Assembly: GCA_051362555.1 (NCBI GenBank)
Contig: CM120643.1
Coordinates: 13,490,644-13,554,643 of the forward strand
From: Lingula anatina
Taxonomy: Eukaryota > Animalia > Brachiopoda
Direction: 5' to 3'
DNA length: 64,000 bases
Part shown: positions 1-64,000 of the stretch, piece after piece
How positions within the stretch are numbered: position 1 is the stretch's first letter
Layout: the number at the start of each line of letters is the position of its first letter
The notes under the pieces: generated by a model
Database searches by the model: none
What the model saw: only the letters and a program-made list of their open reading frames with translations
Told to the model about the DNA's origin: nothing
Position numbers and translations under genes: made by a program

Positions 1-160
1 GAATTTCTTGTTCCCCAGCAAAATTCATTTAGGCAGACTGCCCTAAAGTCAGCTTTTTTTCTAGTAGCGGGGGCCTCGTCATATTATACAGATATTAGAG
101 GATCTGAGTACTTAAATATTGCACCTCTGCTATATATTTGTCTGTACATTGCATTTATAG

Positions 161-3100
161 GTTGGAATGCTAGAACATGTGATTACACAACCCATACAGA
201 AGACGCGGGTGTTGTATGTGACACCTCGGGCTCAGTGGGTATGGTACGCTTATCGCACGGGGAAACGACCACGACAGGACGGTTGGAAGCGCATCATGGC
301 GGGAAATGGGGTGTCGTCTGCGCAAGGTCAAACACCGTTAACGACGTTACAAACGTCGCTTGTGTCGTTTGCCGACAACTTGGACATCTAGGAGGGACTG
401 TCTTGGCGAGCAGAAGTGTGCCCTCTAACGGTGCTGTCCTCTCCGGGCTTTCATGCACGGGAAATGAAAGTGCAATAACAGACTGCACGCACGATCCCTG
501 GGGAAGTCCGTCCACAACCTGCTTTGATAGTTCTGTGAGTTTGCTTTTAAAAAGTAAAAAAAAAAAAAAAACATTTTAAGACCTGTTTCAGAAAAAATGG
601 TATCTTTCCTATTGAAAACAACATAAACTTACAATCTATCAGTGCAGATAAGAACATTATCGTGGATAATGACATCGGCATTTATAGGTCAATATTACAC
701 CCATCCGTGAAGTGAAACATTAGAATCTTTGTAAAAGGCAGCAAAATATAATTTATACATTAATCATTTTTGCTCTGTTCGATTTTCCTCTTCGTAATTT
801 TAAAAAGGGCTTCTTGTACATTAATTTTCCAGGCGATATGGATTGCGTGTGATAGAGATATCGTAACCCTGGATGGTTCCCTAAGGCTAATTGGTGGAAA
901 TACATCCAATGCTGGACGCCTAGAGATGTACTATTATGGGGATTGGCGCTCCGTAAGCAAATGACTCGCCTAATTCATTTTGCGTCACTATTAAGTGTTT
1001 CCCATGCTCTCAAGTTTAACTATCAAAATTTAATATTCATAATTTCAGATTCCGTGTTTCCAACGTTGAATAGTGGCAAATGATGCACTGATAAATCTAC
1101 GTCAAAATCTATATTTGCCAAGAAACAAAATTGAGGCAGACATATACCTTTGTTGACACAGTGTCATTTATCTGTTCTTAATTGGAAATCCCGTACTTGG
1201 TACATAATGTATAATACAATGTGATGAACATGTAATTGTATCTTATTTTAGATGTGCCGCAGCATCTGGACAAATCACAAGGCGACAAACGCCAAAGTTG
1301 CCTGCTCTCAGTTAGGGTTCGTTTTCGCGTCTAAAGAACTGACCACAGAGTTTGGACAGGGTGCAGCGATTGTTCATCTCCAAGAGGTAAGTTATAAAAT
1401 GTGCCATTTTGTTCTGCAATATATACTTCATTAAGGTCGTTTCAAAAAAGTTTTGGTAAAATTTTTCACTACTTTGTTGTGATTTTTTTTCAAAAAACTC
1501 TAAAGCACGCAAAATTTGGATGATGGACCATCATTGGTTGTATTAAGCCTTTTCTGCACTGGGTTTTCAGCTACGTTGTACTGGTTCCGAGGACAGTATA
1601 CTTGGCTGCAGTCCATCCCTGGGCCCAACACCGCCATTATCCTGTCCCCATGTCGGAATTGTTTGTGAAGGTAACTTTCACACCGTCCCACATGTTAAAC
1701 TTTTTGTGGAGTTAATGGGGAAAATAAAATAGATAAATAAAATGTGATAAAACTACCCTGCGCCTCACTCCCAAAAAGGCAACATACGCAGGCCCTCTGA
1801 ACCATTCATTTTTCTAAAATGTAATCAGGAGTCTTAATTGTAAACTGGACGTTGACGTACGGCGCGTTCCGTTTAGCGTTGTGTTCATGCATTTTACTTC
1901 GATTGCACACTATATAGGCAATATATACGTCTTTCATTGATAGCCTAGTCTGGACACATCGTGCGTTCATGGCAGTATACTGCATTTCGTTTTTGTTTTC
2001 CTTAATCTCACTACTAGCGTCATTTATTCCTGCTGAGACCTGTCAATGCTTTCCAGGTCGCCATTTTCCAAATAGCACTCGCCTGAACGACGGACAGAGA
2101 GCAGACGGCTATGAAGGGCTGTTGGAAGTTTTTGAACAGGGACGATGGTACACCGCCTGCACACAGAAGTTCACCGAGAGAATGGCGGATGTCGTCTGCA
2201 AAGAAAGGGGTTATACAAAGTTTCTCGCCTTCCACTATTTCCCTGTGATACCCTCTGCTGATACATTCGTCACCAAGGCAATTTGCACGGGTACAACAAT
2301 TGATGCTTATACCTTTGAAATAAAGTATGTCTTGGCGTACGCATTATCTCAAGCTACACGTCCTTCAAATAAACGTTCTCTACGTCACGATAATGAAGCA
2401 TCTGTTATAACTGTTCCGTCTTAAATAACATAAAATAACATAACTCATGGTCGCAAATTGCAGGCAATGAAACTCGCTTGAGCCAGTGTCCACACCACGC
2501 ATGGATTCGAATGGTAGACCATTGTGCCTCATACAAAGGCATTATATGCTACAGGCAGCCCCTGTCCCCGGAGAAAGGTACCTCGACACTAGGAGTGTCA
2601 GGCGGTGAGTATGACCAACTACGCTATCCCAAATGGATCGTTCAAAAAGAACACAAATGCTCTCCAGACATATATAATATATAGGCCATCAGGCTCACCC
2701 CTAATATTTTGAGCGTAGGTACCAATTGGGTGATCTTTGAACACCTGAGTTGATATCGCGTGAAGGTTCATTATGTCAGGATTCAGTGTTTCATCAAACC
2801 CTTTGAATATAGACAGAAATTATCATAATCCATCAATAACATTCTTGACTTACATTCTCAATATGAAAAAACTTTATTGGTTTATTTTTTGAAGAAAATA
2901 CCTCAAATTTGACCTTATGTGACCCTTGACACAATTTAACTTTACCCTATTCTCTAGAACAACCCTTAGGCTGCATAATGATTATACATTATTGCTTTAT
3001 CTTATCTTTGTTTCATATTACGGATGATATCGTTCCCAACCCAACAACCCCATATATTAGATACGGTCTTTTAAGCAACAGGGTATTAATAAGTGACCGT

Positions 3101-6100
3101 TTACATGATGAAAGCTGCTGATTTGAAACTGCTACCAAACAAAAACTGACTCCTGACCAAAACTGACTCCTGATACCAATTAGCCTCAGTTACCTAATTG
3201 GCACCAATTGGCACCCCTATACCAGATGAACTAAAACGTGCTTTGGCTGTTGAGAGAATTATCCTGTAGCAAATTTTATACACATTCATTCAGGGTATAA
3301 CATGGGGCTTTTCTTTTTTGAGACAGCTTTCGATTGGCTGCCAAGAATGACCTTGGTTTTTTTCAGGTTGCGGGGCTGGTGCCAGTACGTCAAGCGGGGA
3401 CGGCAACTCGGGCTGGCTGCAGACGCCGCTTTACCCAAACCTGTTTTATGACAACAATGTGGCCTGTATCTGGGCCATTGTTGTGCCCGTGGGATATACT
3501 ATTAATGTGCAGTTTAAAGGTAAGTGTTTACTATTGCTTTTCGCTTGATAACTATACAAGTGTCTATCATATTTTGTCCTTTTGTTAATAAATTTACATA
3601 TATTCATTTATACGTTTATTTTTCCATGTATAAAAAAGTATGATGTTCGTCGTTACTATAATTATTGTTATCATTGTACAACAATTAGTCTGCAATAGTC
3701 GGTAATAGTTCTCATCATTATTTATTTATTTATTTGTTGCTTTATTTTTGTTTCTTTTGGAATTTTGTGTTTAGGGTTATATGATGATTTGTTGTTTAAG
3801 GTGGCGATTGAATGAAAACTGTAATGCTTGTAGGGGTGGACAGATTTCAGAGTAACAGTACAATTTCTATTGATTTTTCAAAGACGGTTCGAAGACTGAA
3901 GCATCATATGATACTGTAAAGTTGTTCACAGAAGTGGAGAATTTAGCTACCCTTATCGAAACCCTCTCTGGGCCTCTGCCTAATAGTAAGTTTTGTTTTG
4001 TCTCTTACACTACCTTCATTTTAAGTATATTTGTGCTTCATTTTTCTTGTTTTTTTCATATTGTTTTAACATTTTAAAAGATGTAATTTGCGTAAAAGTG
4101 ATTTATGCGTCAGGAATATGGCATGTAACACAAAAATGAAAGTCCCCTATAGTATCTTCTTATCCGCCACAGCATCCACATGTACATCCGGCCAGTTCAT
4201 ACCTTTATTTCCAATCAGTGTGGACCAGTATTTCCATTTAGGTCATATTAAAAAAATTCGCAAACATTGTGTCCGGATTCATAAAAACATTCAGATTTAT
4301 AATATTAATATTTAATGTGAAATTCAAAGTCTCATCGCTGAAGCCTGCCTCTTCTCTAACATTTATTGTGGCCAACAGTGAATGCAATTTAAATAACAGC
4401 ATTTCAGTATTTTTGGTAGATTTGTTCTTGTTCAAGATCTTTGCCCCTCTATGTTTGTGGGAGATCATAATTTTTCATTATATCCCTATTTTAGACATTG
4501 GAACCAGTACACCATTTGAGCTAAAACTTTCTAACTACAAAATGTTCATGCCTTATTTCAAAAGCATCGTTTGACCGCATATATTAGCTGTGATTTGTTA
4601 ACTTGACCGTTTTTATAAAATAACTTCTGCTGTTTTACACAATCACTTGCAAACGTGTTAGTAAAAATACATTTAAATTGAAATATTTATATATTACTTG
4701 ATACAAGGTCGCATCCATCTTGACGCTAATGTTGCATTAGTGGAGTTTAAGAGTGATGCCTCAACGGGTGAAGTAGGATTCCGGTTGGAGTATACAGCTG
4801 TTCTACGTAAGTTCATGAGGATGAAGTAATGCTTTATCCTATGAGGGGTCATTACCAATGAAACAATCGGTCCACGTAGCTCGATCCAACTCCGCGGGGA
4901 CTCGATGAATGCCATCATATTAACGCTTTTCAGTATCCCACTCAAGGCCAAGAAAGGGCGTGTTAATGTGTGCATCTGATTGCACTCAGCGAGAGTCCCT
5001 GTGGAGTTTGATTGATCTACGTAGAACGATAGTTTCATTGGGAATGACCCCTTGGAAGTATTTTAATTGAGGTATTTATTTTTTGACTGTTTCATTTCTT
5101 TTTTATTTTCCATTGGTTGATAAAATTTAAAAACTAGCAGATGATTAATAGTTGTTATATATTTACCATTATAAATACAATCGGGAATGGCAATGCTAAT
5201 ATAATGTTTTGTTAACATTGATTGTATTGGATAATCTCCATGTACTAGTTCAAGGAAACCCTGTCAGGTTAGATATTAACAATTTTATAACAATGTATAT
5301 GCTTAGTTGCTATCAGAGTATCCTTCCTTTTTGCAGCAGATTCCAGCAATTTGTGTTTTCTTTTTTATTCACTTTCAGCGCCAAGTACACCGGCGTCCAC
5401 TTTATCAAATACGTTCAGTGTTTCTAGCCGTAATTATCAGTTTATATTTCAGTCGGTATCTTGCTTTGCTGCCTACTCGCTTGCTTTTTAAATTAGTTGA
5501 AAATTTAGCTTTTATTCTTCTGTACGTTTTTGAGTATACAGTTGTCTAAATTTTAATTCAAACGTACCTCTCGCTTTGACCACAGTTACGCCAAATTAAA
5601 GCCGGGTGACACCAGTCGAGTTTATAAAAGCACCTAGATTACCTCAGCGAAGAGAGGCGGCAATTTCGTTTGTCCCTTCTTTATACCAATAATGAAATCT
5701 GTTTACTTGTGCCACATGATACTTTTTAAAAGAATTTTAACAGTTTGAAACTAATGAAACACCTCACTGTTATTTTTATCTGCATTCATGATTAATCTCA
5801 TCTGCGCTTGACACTAGCTTTCACTTAATACCTTCTCTTTGGTACCCACTGTAGATCTGGAAAAGTGGCTCATAAATGTAAAGCAGATATACATGTATTT
5901 CTACAAGCAACATGGCAAATTTTAAATCTAAATTACAGATAAGGAGAATAGTAGGACATTTTAATTGTATAGCTTTGAAAACTTTCAACTATTTTTTCTC
6001 TTAACTATTGCGTTCTGTTAATACACAATGTCAAACAAAACACAAGCTACCATGTAATAGATATCACGAAATTAACTCATTTCCCGCATGGATATTCCAG

Positions 6101-6209
6101 CATTTAGGTAGTACCACACCTTACTTTATTAAATTAGATATATGTCACAGGGCAAGCCAGCGGGTGGCTTCTGCAATTTCAGTTGGTTATTCATAAATTT
6201 TAAAAAAAG

Positions 6210-6247
<38 letters not shown>

Positions 6248-7753
6248 AAATCCACCTGCCAGTTCTTCACAAACTTTCCAATAAAACTTTTTTCAGGCAC
6301 CACTACCGCAACTTTTCCACCCACAACAACATCACCAGGTGAAAAAGAAGGTAGGTTCAGCCGCCGTCGTTGCCTCATGGATGTTATTATCACAAAACTG
6401 TGCTTTTTCATCTACACCGTCTTTAGAAAGCTTGCCCCACATGTAGATAGACACGTTTTGGTATGATAGTTTGTTAAAAAAAATAAGAGCACCATTAATT
6501 TAACCAAAAGATTGTAATTGTTTGATTATAAATAATTACAAGTGAATTGTTTGATTATTAGTAATTATAAGTAAGATTATAAGTAATTTCTGTCTGTCAA
6601 TCTAAATTAACCATGAGCTATCCACTTTCAATTGTCGTTGAAACGATGATAGTCACATAATGTGTTTAATGTGTTTTTTTTTGGTAACTGAAGGTTCTGA
6701 GAGTGGCAAGCTGGTAGTTGCTGTAGTGGTACCGGTGGTTGTGCTGGCAGTGGCAGGAACCATAGTAGTCGGGCTGTGGCTCTTTTTGTACAAAAAGAAA
6801 GCTGCAAACAATAAGTATGTATTGCACAGGATAGGCGTCAATAATTTGAATATTAGATCACTGATATGTTATTTTACTTCCAACATATTTGTGCGTGCAG
6901 AAGAAAGTTGAGTAGGCATACAATTTATATAAATAGTGTGCAGTTACAAAGGGTACCCATGTTTTTTTTACAAATAGTTCGTAATTATCACAGTATGGGT
7001 ATTACCATCTCACTCACTCCAGTTCATTTCCAATTTCTAAGTGGTAGGTTCAGCAGTCTGCTTAATCTACGCGACAATGAAGTTAGGCCATCGTCAGCGT
7101 CCAGCACGGCTAGTCAACTATCGGTAGCCCCGCAGGAAGTGATGCCCCAAGCCTCACCTACATATAACAGTCTAACTTTAACCTCCACTGGCGACCATAT
7201 GTACACAGGCCTGGATGACGGTTATGCCCGTCTTCATAATTCAGGTCAAGGTCAAGGACATTACGCCACTTACCACCGGGATGGCAAACCTCGACTGGAG
7301 TCTGCTAACTACGATGACTTCTATGCTCAGATACCTCCAGCTGCTACAAATTTTTCATATTCCACCGATCATTCGCGTAATGTAACCGTCTCTGAAGACA
7401 AGGATGAAAGAAATAGCCATTCTGGTTCATGGGAAAATCACGCATTTCAAGTTGGTGGAGCCTCTGGAAGTCCTGGTGACATCCCTAGTCAGTTTTTGTG
7501 TCCAATCACAGGCAGTCTTATGAAAGACCCCGTTACTGCAAGTGACGGTTATACATACGACAGAGCAGCAATAACACAGTGGCTCAGCGGGAGTAGACTG
7601 TCGCCTGTTACAACCATTCCTTTGTCCAGTCAGAACTTGGTGCCAAATGATCGGTTGCGCAAAAGTATGGCAACGTGGCGGTCTAATAATCAGGGCAGTC
7701 GCATTTCACTGAACTCACGTCCTTGTACACCTATGACTGATGTAGAAGCATGA
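161..7753 (+). CDS. Multi-exon SRCR(n>=4)-CUB-S/T stalk-TM-Tyr motifs-U-box protein (scavenger-receptor-like membrane E3 ligase); 5' end lies upstream of window
   Basis: GT-AG exons in continuous phase: 161-534, 833-952, 1252-1386, 1571-1670, 2057-2290, 2464-2604, 3367-3519, 3884-3985, 4708-4806, 5379-5429 (less sure), 6297-6350, 6694-6814, 7042(or 7048)-7753. SRCR motifs: HTEDAGVVC, VRL..G...GRLE..H.GKWGVVC, LRLIGG...AGRLEMYYYGDW, CTGNE..L..C.H..W. CUB motifs: GWLQTPLYP..YDNNVACIWAI, YDTVKLF, VEFKSDAS..EVGFRLEY. TM LVVAVVVPVVVLAVAGTIVVGLWLFLY followed by KKK. U-box IPSQFLCPITGSLMKDPVTASDGYTYDRAAITQW..SPVT...L...LVPNDRLR. Confidence 0.85.
4845..5051. mobile_element. MITE with long terminal inverted repeats (family A, copy 1)
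   Basis: Starts GGGGTCATTACCAATGAAACAATCGGTCCACGTAG and ends CTACGTAGAACGATAGTTTCATTGGGAATGACCCC (imperfect TIR); related copy at 23221-23348. Confidence 0.75.
7478..7681 (+). other. U-box domain coding region (terminal exon of receptor gene)
   Basis: DIPSQFLCPITGSLMKDPVTASDGYTYDRAAITQWLSGSRLSPVTTIPLSSQNLVPNDRLRKSMATW matches the U-box consensus P..F.CPIT..LM.DPV...DG.TY.R.AI..W.....SP.T...L....L.PN..LR..I..W. Confidence 0.95.
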
Positions 7754-9310
7754 TAATTTATAACGCAATTTTTAGCCAGATTAAAATGTAAATGAATGTC
7801 ATATGGAAGTGCCGTTTAATGGCCTGGGGATAAAAACTTGGGTTTAAGGCCTATCTCGGTTTCAACATTTTCTCTTAAAATCAATTCAATCCAAGTACAC
7901 AATGTCAAATCACCAAAACATTCATTACAATGTATATATTCGTTATACACTGTACATAGTCTAGTATTCCACCTTGCCAGTTAACTGATCCAGAAGGTGG
8001 TGAATTCAACCAGTGCTTGTTGAGGTTTTGGATCTCTGTCTTGACACTCTGTCCACCATTCTGTCTTGCCAAGCAACGGAACCAGCAGGTAAATTGCGCC
8101 AATGTTTGTTGGGGTTGCGTTGCATCTTGTCTTCTATGGAAGCTCTGTTGGGTGCCGACTTCTACAGTGTTGGCAAGGTTTTGGCCCCTTCCCCGTGCTC
8201 CAGACTTCCAGTAATTTATAGGAATATCACAATTACAAATACTGATATTTGAAGTGTTTGACACCAATAAAATCTCAGAAACAATTCAATAAGCGAAGCA
8301 CGCGTGCTATTTTGGACTAATACAATTACTGATATTGGTGAGTAGTGTTTAGTCTCATAATAACACACACTGAGGAAGGTGGCTGTGTGGCCGAATGCTT
8401 TGTTTCTGCTTTTTCATTTAGTGTAGAAAATGAAACGTTTAAACCTATGATTATCGTCGAAAGACAACACAAATTTTTTTATCAGAAAATTTACTTTATT
8501 ACTGAATTACTCTCGTCGCAAATAATAGCCTCGAAACTAACGGTGATATTGCTATTAGCGCTCAGTGGCAAATTGCGATGCCTTCGAATTACGCAATAGC
8601 GACGAATCGCCATGCTTGCGCTCTGTCGCAATTTGCAATGATTTCGAGTTGTGGAGCCCCTGGTCTCGCCCCGACAGCTCATGGTCGTCTTCTCCGCCTA
8701 CTTCTCCGCCTCTGGATCAATTGTTGGATTTGGACAAGTTGATAGTTATGTTGTTGGATTGCAGCAACAATCAGACGGCGTCTTTGGGGTTCCATGCTGG
8801 ACTTAGACTGACAACGATGTCGCTTTCTGCCCGATTTATACACCAGTTTTGGTGTATGTTAAGCGGTCGTTATCCATCGCTTATTGTTTACAAATCGGAC
8901 GCAACACAAACGCTTTAGCTCGTGATGGGGAAGCTCAACATAACGGATTGCATACTTCATACATACTCTTCCAGATCGCTAGCAACCCGCAATTACCCGT
9001 GAGTTGCGGATAAGAGCCGATAACAGCGCATGTATTGCATATGAATTGCGGATATTGCGCATGACGTCCGAAACCCAAATATTATGCAGCTCAAAACCCC
9101 CTGGAACGGAAAAATTGCCTCAGCGGATAATTGCGGACGTATGCAGGTATTGGCCGACTGATTCATGTACAAGCATTTATCACGAATATTTGCGGAGGTT
9201 TAGCGAATATCAACCAATTTTGTGCGAAATTCATGCGCATTTCATCCTAAACGCCAATGGGGCCGGGCCTTTGCAAGACATAAAGAACCGTAGCTCTGGG
9301 TCGAAAAGAT

Positions 9311-12152: not shown

Positions 12153-13169
12153 TCACAAAAAGGAAGTCGAGGTTCTTGCAGTGCTTTGGTTCGTTGGTCC
12201 AGAAAACCGCCGTTTGAACGCAGCCCTGAATTCTGTGGAAACAAAATTATACAGAATTGGATTTAAACATGAATTGGTGACCGGAAGCACCTGAGACAAA
12301 AAATGAAGCCAGAACCAAGCCCCTTTCGGACACACAGGATTATATACCTGTGCTATGAATAAGATATAGAAGAGGTAAAAATCTCCCCAGCATACAACGA
12401 AGAGCACTAAGACGGCGAAAACGATGGCTGTTAGTCGTCGGGTATCCGAAGGGGACATTCCGGCGGGCGCTGAATCTTCTGAGCCAAGGGCAGCTGCGAT
12501 AGCGCGTTCCTGTTGGCGGATAACCACCATGATTCCAATAGAGAAAGAACCGATTACCAAAACGGGGAAGATGAAATCCAGGCCAAATACTAACACGTAG
12601 AAGAAATGTCCATCAGCATCTGTCATGTTCTGTGACAGACCACAAGATTTCCCTTTGCTTTCCTCGAAATAAAAGAAAAGTGGAAAATTTGCTATTATCA
12701 TTCCAACCCATACTAGAGCTGCAACCTTCGTCGTGAAGCTCTTGCTGACAAAGTTTTTGCAATGCAGGGGCCATTTAACAGCCACGAACCGTAGCGCGCA
12801 TATAAAAACTAAACAATATACACTAACCCCTTGAGTGGTGTACACGAAAAAGTATGCAATTTTACACACCGGCGGCGTTAAGGAGACTCGGTATTCTGTT
12901 GCGAAGCGTAACGCTTGTACTGGGAGACAAATGATCAAGTAAAGCAAATCGGCAACGGCAAGATTTAAGAATAAAACGTTCAGTCGTGTTGACTTGCAGA
13001 TCACCGAAATCACCAAGCTGTTGCCTATCACTCCTATGACGAATATTATCGAATAAATCAATGGCAAACCGATGACTACAATATGGGACTGAATAAATTT
13101 AACTTCCCCGCGACAAAAATATGTATCATTTTCTCCCATTCCATTTATGTCATCAGTTTTGTTTTCCAT
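12153..13169 (-). CDS. Intronless class A (rhodopsin-like) GPCR, neuropeptide-receptor-like (galanin/allatostatin-A receptor-like), atypical motifs
   Basis: Seven hydrophobic helices. GNSLVI (TM1), LAVADL (TM2), conserved TM3 Cys and ECL2 Cys, TM4 W, TM5 FP, NSCLNPILY plus helix 8 (EFRAAF). N-terminal sequons NKT and NDT. Start taken at MENKT; upstream in-frame ATGs exist. Confidence 0.9.
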   Translation of the reverse strand: MENKTDDINGMGENDTYFCRGEVKFIQSHIVVIGLPLIYSIIFVIGVIGNSLVISVICKSTRLNVLFLNLAVADLLYLIICLPVQALRFATEYRVSLTPPVCKIAYFFVYTTQGVSVYCLVFICALRFVAVKWPLHCKNFVSKSFTTKVAALVWVGMIIANFPLFFYFEESKGKSCGLSQNMTDADGHFFYVLVFGLDFIFPVLVIGSFSIGIMVVIRQQERAIAAALGSEDSAPAGMSPSDTRRLTAIVFAVLVLFVVCWGDFYLFYILFIAQVYNPVCPKGAWFWLHFLSQVLPVTNSCLNPILYNFVSTEFRAAFKRRFSGPTNQSTARTSTSFL

Positions 13170-14279
13170 TTCTATTAAGATTATTGTCATTAATGTCATA
13201 AAGTTAGTGTTTTCTTTTTCGTGCTGTTGAAGCAATTTTCTCTAACACCGCTCAACAATTAGAGTTAAATTGGAAAATTTGCTGGTTTCTTTTCCAGAAC
13301 AGTTTCCATCTCTGGTCGAAGCGCTGTCCAATGCTGCCAGCTGCATTATGATGAAAAACAATTAGTCAGGACTCTGGACCATCGTGTGCAGCCATTTTCT
13401 GACTTTTTCAATAATTTCATTTTACCTCGTTGTTCCTCTCATTTCTCTCTCACAAAGCATGATATTACTAACTGTGTAGAGTTTACTTAAAATTTCAACA
13501 ACTTGTCATTTGGTCTTCGCCGCAGTGTATTCTTTCTTTGCGTGGCGCTTTAAGATTTTCCGATATAAGTCTTCTGCCTGTTTTGCAAAAATTAAGAGGC
13601 AATAATTTCTTTAATACTGACACCAGCTTAACACAAACAGTGCGAGGGTCGTTAACCACAATCGGATAGAGTTACTCAGCTCTCGATTTGAGGCCTATCA
13701 TAACTTTATTGCCGTCCTGTTTGCTTAAGAGTCGAAACCCCAATATTATAGTATTTTGTAAAAGCAAACAGACCGCGGCGATTGTCTCCATTATTTGAGC
13801 CAGTAAGTAAAACTTCATACAAATTAATTTCACGGTATCTCCGCCGAATGTTTACGGTTGCCAGGTGAGCCTCCGCTCTGCCAAAGGTCCTCAGTTCCAC
13901 TCCCGCCAGATTAGAACGAACGCTCCACTGGCATCATCTACCCCCATCGCTTGCCACGTAGCAATTATGATGGACACATGGATAGAAAGCGTCTAAATAG
14001 AGCTTGGTATAATGTCATTGATGTCAAATAGCAGCCGCTATACGCATGCGCCAGACGAGACAATGTACTGACCTATGGCAAAAATCGTATTTGCCATGAG
14101 ACTTCATGGTGGTCCTTAGAAATATATTGACTGTAAACCTGTCTGCAGACATCACGGTTCGCATGGCAATATATTAGATCAATTTATAACTAAAGACCAT
14201 GTCTGGAGCCAGCAATTTAAAGAAAGGGGGGGGTCTTTTTTATTATTACTATTTATTCACAAGGACAAGTATTAATTTT

Positions 14280-17284: not shown

Positions 17285-18222
17285 ATTAATGTCAGGGAGG
17301 TGTGCGTCCTTTTTTAAGTTAAAGGTTCATGCCTATAGTAATAGGGTAATAATGATAAAATTAATCGATTTTAAGTCTAAAATTATTAACTCTAAAATTA
17401 GTATTAGCCACGACGCTGGATAGCATGGATGGCATTTGGGTGATTTTCTAAACCCATGGCGTGTACCTTTAAGGTTGAATTTTTTGTAGTTACTTTTAAA
17501 AAAATAACTCACTATTTGTTATCATTAATAAAAAAATCTATTTAATGCCATTTGAGTTTATAAAAAAAAAAAACAAGTTTGATTTCATAGATATTGGGTC
17601 TCTTGTTAATAAATGTTTTTAACACATGCAAAATAATGAATGTAACGTATACTCAGCTTACACAAAGTCTTAAGAAAACGTTATCCTAACGTTCTACACT
17701 GCCACTGTCATTATCATTGATCCTAGAAACTAGTGGCTGAATACATATTGGGTTGGAGTGAGTCGGCGACTATAGAGCAATGAGGATTTTAGAGCCCTCG
17801 GGCAGTCGGTACTTACCCGAAATTATAGACATGATGAAAAGCTTTTTAAAAAAACCTGTAAAAGTAGACTTCAATTATGTTATAAGGTTTATCAAAATTA
17901 TTAAAAAGGTGTTTTCTAGTTATCCTGATAGTTGACTGGCGTTTGTGATGATTTAATGGATTGTTTTAACTTCATTTTAGAAAATTCATTCTAATAAATT
18001 CCCTACAAGGTCAGCTAACACAGGAGTAGTGAAAAGGTTTAGCAGTGACTTGTCCGAAGCAAATAAGATTAAATAGCACTCCACGGTCACGTGATTGACA
18101 AATGGGGGATTCCATTCAATTGGAGGGGTTTAGTGGAGAAAATCCACTCAATCTGAGGGATGTCAGGTGGGGCGACTCCATTCCAAATAAAGGGGTGTTA
18201 TATGGGCTAATTCCATCCCATA

Positions 18223-18708
18223 GTAGGGATGACAGGTGGGGGAGTCCATTGCATGAGAGGGGTGACAGGTGGGACCAGTCCATTGCATGAGAGGGGTGAC
18301 AGGTGGGGCGAGTCCATTGCATTAGAGGGGTGACAGGTAGGGCGAGTCCATTGCATTAGAGGGGTGACAGGTAGGGCGAGTCCATTGCATTAGAGGGGTG
18401 ACAGGTGGGACTAGTCCATTGCATGAGAGGGGTGACAGGTGGGGCGAGTCCATTGCATTAGAGGGGTGATAGGTGGGACCAGTCCATTGCATGAGAGGGG
18501 TGACAGGTGTGGCGAGTCCATTGCATTAGAGGGGTGACAGGTAGGGCGAGTCCATTGCATTAGAGGGGTGACAGGTGGGACTAGTCCATTGCATGAGAGG
18601 GGTGACAGGTGGGGCGAGTCCATTGCATTAGAGGGGTGATAGGTGGGACCAGTCCATTGTATTAGAGGGGTGACAGGTGGGGCGAGTCCATTGCATTAGA
18701 GGGGTGAC
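18223..18708. repeat. 34-bp G-rich minisatellite (~14 units) with 170-bp higher-order duplication
   Basis: Unit GAGGGGTGACAGGTGGGGCGAGTCCATTGCATTA; the variant pattern at 18371 recurs at 18541; degenerate units upstream from ~18100. Confidence 0.95.
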
Positions 18709-19439
18709 AAGTGTAATTATCCCAATTCAGTTCAAAGAACAGTAACAGAAGAAATTATGTTATACCCTCAGAAATCAAAATTTTTTGGCCAATTTCAGAT
18801 GGATCCATTAAAAAAGAAACTAACTTGATTTAAGCTTACATCAGAATCATCCCACGTTCAAATTTTTATTATTACGTTCAAATATCAAATTAAGTTTTTA
18901 TACTAAGAATAGGTGGCCAATTTAAAACAATTTCGCAATAGCAAATCCAGAACCCGTCGAAATGAGACCCTCCCTATATAAGAAAAAATTATATCCAACG
19001 AATTAGTTCCATATGCTATAGAACAAAAATTGCATGTGATTTTTTTAAAACCAGGATTGTTAACTTATATGAATTTGAACTATAAAATGTAGGTTGTTGG
19101 AAACTATTTTAGATATTTTCTTTCAGTTCACTAAAACAGCTTGGAGGGGTTATTTAGAAAATACTGGTCATTTTACTACTATTTAAAATTTAGGTACCAC
19201 AGACCACCGTCAACCACAAAAACATTGACATTATTTACAGATCAGATTGAATTTGAAAGTCCTCAAACACTAAAAAACTCGTTTTCCATTATGATTACTA
19301 CTATCCTTATCATAATAACTTCATAACAAAGTGAAAAATAAATTACCAAATTACAAGTTTTTTTTTTTTTTTTTTTTTTTTTGAGTTTTCATATAACAGA
19401 TGTTCGAAGGAGCGTGGGTTCCTGTGTGTGAAACAAAGG

Positions 19440-21041
19440 CTAGACTTCATAGGTTGCTTTCAGGCGGATGGTGTGCAGAATCTCGTTGAGCTCCTGAAAA
19501 GATAAAATAAGGTTTAAAACTTTGAACTAAACAGACAGGCTCTTTTCATTCTAATAATGAATGTAATATCACAGAGCAGAGGGCACATATAAATGGAATG
19601 GCGTTTACGTTAATGAACTAGTTTGATGTTCAGGTTCAGCTAGCGCAAAACCCAAATTATGATCTGGAATTAGTTAAATGATATAACTATTCGAGACCTC
19701 TTGTTAAAAAAGTACTATTGACAGCACAGCCCGCTTCATTTGCAGGGTGGGTGATGTTATGCTACGACCGTTAATATATTCCTCTTTATATTAAAAGTTG
19801 TAACACGTGTTGTAGTACATGTTGATGCATTTCAGAGAAAGAGATCATTTATAAATTCTCTTCGAAAATTATAACAAATATATTGCATATATATAATAAG
19901 TTTTCATACAGTGAACCGTGTAATGGATGGACAACACACGGCACAATGGAGACGACAGGCTGTGTAAAATATGTATCTGTCAATCATTGTGCAATAAGCA
20001 GTCGAAATCCTTGGATCAGAAGCTCAGAACGGTGACAAGCATCATCCAATTAATTTATTTGGGTGGTAATACTTACATTTAAACACACGCAAACTTTTTG
20101 TACCAGATTTTCGACGGGTCTTTCATGTGGTCAGGCCCTTGATAAAACGTCAAGATTCATATGAATGAGTACAGGTAACAAGGACCGAATACAGTTGGGT
20201 GGGTTCTAGTATGACTACTGAAAAACACGCTTGGTCTCTTTATTTATTTTGTCGACTGACTTATTTACCAATTAGACTGTTAACAGGGACGGATCCAGGA
20301 TTATTTGAAGGGGGGGGGGGGTCCAGAACGACAGACCTCGGATGCGAAGCCGACCATCCCCCCCTTGGTGTGGGGTTTGGGGCCTGCTCAAGGGCCCCGA
20401 AAATTTTTTGGTTTTCTGGAGAGCAAACAGTGCCCTTTGGTACGGTTAAGAACTACATCTATAATTTAGCTAATCAAAATTCTAATTTCAAATGAGGATT
20501 ATTGGTGTTTTATTTCAGAAACCGAAGGGGGGTCAGGACCCCCCTGTCCACCCCCTCTAATTCCACCACTGCATGAAATTACTGGGTGAAACTAACATAA
20601 ATAGAACTTCTTATTTTGTATTTTACATAACTTATCAATATTTACATTCAATCATTTTATTCTATTGCAAAATCAAGTTTTTTTTTATTTGGATCATAGA
20701 ACCTTAATTCGGCCTTCGGGCTGTGTAGACAGTCAAAATCTGCTGTCGATTTTTAGAATTAAGGAGAGATTTTATCTATAAATAAAATTATTGAATGTAC
20801 GTTTTAATTATTAATGTTATTACTGTATGTATCTATTTTTATATATTATATCTATTTTAATCTTGAATCAGAACTCATTTGATGGTGTCAAGAATATGTG
20901 GTCAAATACCAGCTGTAAGTGGTGTGTGTGTGCGTGTGTGTGCGTGCGCGCGCGCGTGCGAGAGTGCGTATAAACTGAAAAGCTTTTTCTTACCTTAGCC
21001 AACAGACGGCACAGTGCGCAGGTTGACCCAGTCATTGCCAT
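19440..21041 (-). CDS. Candidate two-exon 33-aa microprotein MAMTGSTCALCRLLAK/ELNEILHTIRLKATYEV*
   Basis: Exon 21041-20994 (ccATAATGG start, AAG|GTAAGA donor) joined in phase 0 to exon 19493-19440 (ttattttatcttttcag|GAG acceptor, TAG stop). GC3-rich codons in AT-rich surroundings. Confidence 0.5.
20284..20571. mobile_element. MITE of the CAGGGGCGGATCCAG type
   Basis: CAGGGACGGATCCAGG...G-run ... GGACCCCCCTGTCCACCCCCTCTAATTCCACCACTG termini. Confidence 0.55.

Positions 21042-22074: not shown

Positions 22075-64000
<41,926 letters not shown>

Follow-up and report, generated by a model that had tools for sequence, protein, structure and literature searches.

The locus considered here, within a stretch of 64,000 nucleotides of the Lingula anatina genome (contig CM120643.1; hereafter, the window), raises the question of what a predicted membrane protein might do with a cytoplasmic tail that carries a cluster of short tyrosine motifs between its transmembrane (TM) helix and a U-box. 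The preliminary description of this DNA had pointed out a hemITAM-like motif in the tail and proposed that the receptor may combine phosphotyrosine (Src/Syk/SH2) signalling with its own E3 ligase, placing the ITAM-then-Cbl logic in one chain, and had mentioned that YxxPhi motifs also serve as AP-2 endocytic signals. A 13-exon GT-AG model on the plus strand, from 163 to 7753, reads through 797 residues to a stop codon without interruption, and differs at only seven of 666 aligned residues (99% identity) from the Lingula anatina protein P0002 (XP_013382414.1). The possibility that the tail motifs are a wrong-frame or intronic artefact is ruled out by this in-frame model, the features of which are as follows:

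163..6350, plus strand: 11 ectodomain and stalk exons, in an in-frame GT-AG model matching P0002
6694..6814, plus strand: transmembrane exon, spliced as in P0002
7042..7753, plus strand: last exon, which encodes the U-box and the bulk of the 153-aa cytoplasmic tail and holds the stop codon
7154..7174, plus strand: motif 1, SPT-YNSL, its Tyr being the 49th cytoplasmic residue
7163..7213, plus strand: ITAM-spaced pair YNSL-x9-YTGL (YSSL-x9-YTDL in the paralogue)
7214..7234, plus strand: motif 3, DDG-YARL, the site called hemITAM-like (DNG-YVIL in the paralogue), which aligns with the coral-type NxxYAxL
7262..7273, plus strand: YATY, which is no YxxPhi motif and is missing from the paralogue P0001
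7310..7333, plus strand: YDDF-YAQI (motif 4), shared by the window and P0002 but missing from P0001
about 7481..7693, plus strand: U-box, WDSUB1/plant-PUB-like (Pfam E 5e-19), with Thr at the linchpin (7613-7615)

The exons from 163 to 6350 encode the end of one SRCR domain, three further SRCR domains, a CUB domain and a Ser/Thr/Pro stalk, and the 5' portion, with the signal peptide and the MAM, SRCR and LDLa domains, lies upstream of the window start, given that P0002 has three MAM, two LDLa, five SRCR and one CUB domain and that its first ~790 residues precede the window. The TM helix (~6714-6791) is followed by a KKK stop-transfer stretch, and the receptor gene as a whole is intact and single-pass, in the order MAM/LDLa/SRCR/CUB, TM, tail and U-box. 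The P0002 model has no U-box, the RefSeq frame being shifted directly after motif 4 (window 7355-7360) and then ending in a stop, a difference that may reflect an allele, a recent duplicate or an assembly error. The paralogue P0001 (XP_013382844.1), with 58% identity to the window gene across the last exon, also has an ectodomain, a TM, a tail and a U-box. The claim that a motif-rich tail and a U-box share one chain is thus borne out by both the window model and P0001, each of which joins an ectodomain, one TM and a cytosolic ligase domain in the manner of a receptor-like transmembrane E3.

The U-box is recognizable by both sequence and predicted fold: the core columns, invariant across 23 rows, have their residues intact in the window, and the structural model lies within an rmsd of 1.0-1.4 A of the CHIP and plant U-boxes, with pLDDT values of 90-97. 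The linchpin residue, which is usually R, K or N (PMC4822130), is Thr in the window and Ala in P0001, at a position assigned by pattern; N, K or R was found there in 118 of the 125 U-boxes scored, and Gly in five. Judged by its residues, any ligase activity may be weak or dependent on a partner.

RNA support for this receptor copy is scant. At 90% likeness, four RNA runs, of each of which 6-30% was covered, gave a depth of zero on the TM and last exons and about one read's worth on one ectodomain exon. At 80% likeness, the depth in the last-exon bin was zero in runs X2 and X5 and at most 0.5 in X8 and X9. As X9 was used at both thresholds and its last-exon depth appeared only at 80%, its reads must be 80-90% alike, and their source may be a paralogue or a population that has diverged. 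When reads were sought for window positions 1-8000, no listed RNA run had a match. The expression control was the neighbouring Virilizer/VIRMA gene (about 22000-63000, plus strand; Pfam VIR_N), with spliced joints in all four runs at 80% likeness. Elsewhere in the window are a single-exon rhodopsin-family GPCR (12153-13241, minus strand; Pfam 7tm_1, E 1.7e-36) with almost no RNA depth in the four runs, a 287-aa open frame antisense within the virilizer gene (40788-41651, minus strand), with a TM-like stretch, an acidic tail and no Pfam match, and a region of strong minus-strand RNA depth in X2 only (18100-20100), in which no open reading frame of at least 100 aa is listed.

All five strings reported from the tail lie in the plus-strand frame of the last exon, with their tyrosines at 7163 (YNSL), 7202 (YTGL), 7223 (DDGYARL), 7262 and 7271 (HYATY), and 7310 and 7322 (NYDDFYAQI). 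Four of the eight tyrosines between the TM and the U-box form YxxL/I motifs, at tail residues 49, 62, 69 and 102, where 20,000 shuffles gave 0.56 on average (P 0.0006) and the background in the proteins collected was 147 of 1178 tyrosines (binomial P 0.011); YxxPhi occurs at five sites, one of them GYxxPhi (shuffle P 0.0024), and all of these P values are flattering, given that the stretch was chosen for its YxxL motifs. The reported cluster is therefore real, except that HYATY, which is neither YxxL/I nor YxxPhi, does not belong to it. The surroundings had also been called low-complexity S/T/G sequence, a description that fails on both counts: the motif stretch has an entropy of 3.79 bits against 3.87 +/- 0.14 in 58-aa ectodomain windows, and an S+T+G content of 29% against 27%. 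The tail is probably disordered, with AlphaFold2 pLDDT values of 34-54 against the 90-97 of the U-box, although low tail confidence was expected either way, as the alignment offered a single relative that could be matched to the tail. Motifs 3 and 4 (7214-7234 and 7313-7333) have DD-x-YA-x-[LI] in common and are alike in their DNA, as if one were a local duplicate of the other. Just before the U-box, WENHAF (7430-7447), which resembles an NxxY/F recycling signal, is similar to the FVNEAY kept in the coral-type sequences L001 and L003 and has no counterpart in P0001.

The conservation of these motifs can be followed in P0001, the tail of which is identical to that of the window at 71 of 145 residues (~49%). 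The Tyr and Leu of motifs 1-3 are kept (YNSL/YSSL, YTGL/YTDL and YARL/YVIL in window and paralogue, respectively), i.e., six of six anchors, compared with nine of the remaining 27 residues of the core (P 0.0045 by Fisher's test, the core having been chosen afterwards), with two of the six inner positions kept. When all four motifs and the whole tail are taken, the anchors are kept in 6/8 cases against 65/137 of the other residues, which is not significant (P 0.12). P0001 is without five of the eight window tyrosines, namely that of motif 4 and four non-motif tyrosines, and each of the three tyrosines that it does have is a YxxL (shuffle P 0.0003). The expected Tyr/Leu conservation thus stands for motifs 1-3 and fails for the distal tyrosines, where the loss that would speak against it was found. 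P0001 also has PPPYSSL, a canonical PY motif ([LP]PxY) overlapping YxxL, the window counterpart of which is SPTY.

Three protein word-index searches returned relatives sharing the tail in Lingula only: P0001 and P0002 among 16 matches in the first, P0001 itself among three in the second, and none among the 120 of 521 matches listed in the third, where 15 of the matches examined shared the U-box only. The protein searches (one with 120 of its 521 matches listed) yielded no sequence of this receptor from other brachiopods. A metagenome scan with both Lingula tails gave no match, and the ESM Atlas gave generic U-box or CUB clusters only, below 0.9.

More distant relatives may be found in corals. 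Supplement 2 of PMC5119243 tabulates Acropora SRCR and CUB proteins with a U-box (A. digitifera aug_v2a.03894.t2 and A. millepora c000424), giving the domain order MAM-(SRCR-MAM)-LDL-MAM-SRCR-CUB-TM-UBOX without a function. An Acropora digitifera fragment labelled WDSUB1-like (P0041, XP_015765328.1), which presumably represents this tabulated protein, retrieved six loci; its label is probably wrong, given that its relatives L001, L003 and L006 show it to be the end of a TM-tail-U-box protein. Once spliced, L001 encodes a TM, KKKKK, a 218-aa tail and a U-box, and L003 and L006 have the same in exons, the coral-type tail being split across several exons as against the single exon of Lingula. A HMMER search of representative sequences with L001 returned coral-type tail fragments and no full-length receptor among the best 150 of 15,708 matches, none of the 20 longer matches scanned in Pfam had SRCR, MAM or CUB domains, and the upstream sequence of L003 and L006 showed no exon for CUB or SRCR. 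As no coral-type sequence obtained reaches the ectodomain, the presumed orthology between Lingula and corals rests on the published architecture table. In a U-box tree of 28 rows (34 chosen, six dropped as missed by the extraction pattern), Lingula was not resolved against Acropora, WDSUB1 or protists. Two further proteins, P0190 and P0285, have a TM helix shortly before the U-box, one of which combines two U-boxes with a cadherin-like domain, and TM-U-box fusions therefore occur more than once.

The coral-type set comprises seven sequences, i.e., L001, L003, L006 and four motif-region fragments from the HMMER search, the organisms being presumed from similarity; L001 and L006 are nearly identical, other pairs are 32-73% identical, and L002 and L004, which lack this exon, and L005, which is 96% identical to L001 here, are excluded. 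YAxL and PPxY occur in all seven, NxxYAxL in six, GYAxL in four and NPxYAxL in three, the tails carrying two PPxY, and neither an acid pair nor an ITAM pair occurs in any of the seven. A multiple alignment places PPPY over Lingula motif 1 and YAxL over motif 3, and the order of P-x-Y followed by GYxxL 20-28 residues on is found in 4/4 full tails (shuffle frequency at most 0.0004, for a pattern set afterwards). Alignments of Lingula with coral-type tails were no better than those of shuffles in four of four comparisons (P 0.10-0.69), and YAxL arises by chance in 4% of shuffles of the window tail. After the second PPxY, the coral-type tails (L001 1-1011; L003 4581-4808) have a TTTGIGSVTSLR-like Ser/Thr stretch that is kept more than its flanks and has no counterpart in Lingula.

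As YAxL and PPxY are the most widely shared of these motifs and known sorting-type signals, we read the protein, tentatively and with a chance somewhat short of even, as a receptor-like E3 whose tail would carry endocytic and endolysosomal sorting signals. The (G)YxxPhi and NPxY motifs bind clathrin adaptors and PY motifs recruit NEDD4 for endolysosomal sorting, LRP1 relying on a YATL beside NPVY (PMC5297682), and membrane-anchored receptor-like E3s remove membrane proteins through ubiquitination and uptake (bioRxiv 2020.05.25.113944). Beyond the anatomy, we infer a series of steps in which the ectodomain would bind a ligand or else a membrane protein nearby, ubiquitination by the U-box would fall on this partner or on juxtamembrane lysines of the receptor itself, and adaptors of the AP-2/AP-3 type would be engaged by the YxxL motifs, especially at the YARL site. 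The PY motif, canonical in P0001 and the coral-type sequences and apparently decayed to SPTY here, would recruit WW proteins of the NEDD4 family, and the adaptors and NEDD4 together would send the complex to lysosomes. In the least supported step, phosphorylation of the acid-preceded tyrosines may switch the tail from adaptor to SH2 binding. The five YxxPhi sites, one of them GYxxPhi, lie in a tail predicted to be accessible, and the earlier remark on AP-2 signals fits the coral-type relatives better than the Syk idea does. Against sorting, the window copy has no canonical PY motif, NPxY is absent from both Lingula tails, and P0001 has YVIL rather than YAxL; furthermore, one signal suffices for sorting, and four acid-preceded, ITAM-spaced YxxL/I motifs look more like SH2 docking.

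It is on this point that a tail acting chiefly as a phosphotyrosine array has to be weighed, in which a Src-family kinase would act on YNSL-x9-YTGL, Syk/Shark would dock by its tandem SH2 domains, and ubiquitination by the U-box would follow, either of that kinase or of the receptor, i.e., the logic of the preliminary description transferred to a tyrosine pair that it had overlooked. The invertebrate ITAM consensus Yxx[I/L]x(6-9)Yxx[L/I], as applied to the Hydractinia Alr receptors (bioRxiv 2022.03.04.482883), is matched by this pair and by YSSL-x9-YTDL in P0001 (shuffle P 0.006 and 0.0008, respectively), with spacers of equal length. Acids precede motifs 2-4. Oyster Syk is reported to act downstream of ITAM receptors (introduction of PMC13344425), and invertebrate Syk accompanies CARD-CC/Bcl10 (PMC5978004). 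The first tyrosine, however, has no acid in its five preceding residues, and the pair, kept in the one paralogue, is found in none of the coral-type sequences, whose orthology we infer. The spacer of the strict vertebrate ITAM, x6-8, has no match in the tail, and in paralogue tails sharing ~49% of their residues an unchanged x9 is weak evidence. This array is the main rival to sorting, though a rather doubtful account of the tail as a whole. Sorting and ITAM signalling are not mutually exclusive, and the latter may be a later gain of brachiopods. Neither ITIM nor ITSM ([SIVL]xYxx[IVL] or TxYxx[VI]) has a match in the window or P0001. Very unlikely is a working hemITAM at DDGYARL that, like those of CLEC-2 and Dectin-1, would bring Syk to a receptor dimer. 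The YARL is indeed a cytosolic YxxL, DD-G-YxxL is improbable by shuffling (P 0.0008), and Botryllus motifs with the first acid replaced have been termed hemITAM-like (PMC12582321), but the CLEC-2-type motif has acids at -2, -3 and -4, which are required for phosphorylation (PMC3576117), and here they stand at -2 and -3 only, with Leu at -4. The triacid pattern is absent from the window (LDDGY), P0001 (LDNGY), L001 and L003, and instead of a single YxxL in a dimer-signalling C-type lectin receptor there are four YxxL/I in a type I SRCR/MAM/CUB receptor. The hemITAM label is thus not upheld, and the resemblance alone carries little weight.

It is also possible that no more than one or two of the motifs matter, the others being products of local turnover in a disordered tail that evolves fast, and that short-motif convergence explains the match to the coral-type tails. 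The tyrosines missing from P0001, motif 4 included, the tails that cannot be aligned across phyla, the frequency of YAxL in shuffles and the P0002 model, with no U-box altogether, are all consistent with this, while the exclusively YxxL tyrosines of P0001, around inner positions that were mostly not kept, and the P-x-Y then GYxxL order of the full tails argue against it, leaving such turnover improbable. In an equally speculative and improbable scenario, the receptor-E3 family would descend from the cnidarian-bilaterian ancestor and a brachiopod ITAM would stand beside an old endocytic YAxL/PY cassette, with one chain capturing the ligand, recruiting Syk/Shark and ubiquitinating it via its own U-box; P0002, modelled with all of the tyrosine motifs and no U-box, would then be a natural brake-free variant.

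Returning to the receptor-like E3 with a sorting tail, the receptor-U-box family is a more interesting object than the motif cluster. The single-chain receptor-E3 ligases of animals are known mainly as RING proteins, and a scavenger-type receptor that itself carries a U-box, apparently common to corals and brachiopods, would widen this class and provide a defined object for studying how the capture of a ligand by invertebrate pattern-recognition receptors is linked to ubiquitin and uptake. Were the x9 pair a working ITAM, activation and shut-off would lie in one polypeptide. As far as the literature search reaches, the family is in print for corals without a function: the prior mentions found were a term in a figure legend, a single sentence and two rows of a supplement, no functional study was found, no paper on a U-box in Lingula came up, and none of the other papers listed dealt with such a receptor, going by the title or the start of the abstract.

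Compared with known systems, the D-D-G-YxxL string recalls CLEC-2, Dectin-1 and CLEC9A, but the Lingula protein has no third acid or lectin domain, is type I with several YxxL, and does not share the string with its relatives. The Hydractinia Alr receptors, Drosophila Draper and the oyster ITAM receptors have a similar YxxL-x9-YxxL in a single-pass tail, with a different ectodomain and no ligase domain described in the parts of those sources drawn on here. The LRP1 tail, in which NPVY and YATL overlap, likewise belongs to a type I receptor that captures ligands, and it combines a YAxL signal for endocytosis with an NxxY element next to it; unlike the Lingula protein, LRP1 has no ligase domain, and both Lingula copies have no Asn at -3. 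RNF43/ZNRF3 and MEGF8-MGRN1 likewise join an ectodomain through one TM to a ligase in the cytosol, which in their case is of the RING type and clears membrane proteins, whereas Lingula has a U-box in place of the RING, a large scavenger-type ectodomain, a tyrosine-motif array and a ligase function that is predicted. WDSUB1 and the plant PUBs provide the best U-box matches among those listed (~45-55% identity over the domain), in proteins that are, by contrast, soluble, with WD40/SAM, ARM or kinase domains and an N or K linchpin. Finally, the Acropora SRCR and CUB proteins differ in their two PPxY, NxxYAxL, multi-exon tail and lack of an ITAM pair, and they resemble the Lingula receptor in the tabulated domain order and, through the relatives of P0041, in the succession of a TM, a basic stretch, a tail with tyrosine motifs and a C-terminal U-box.
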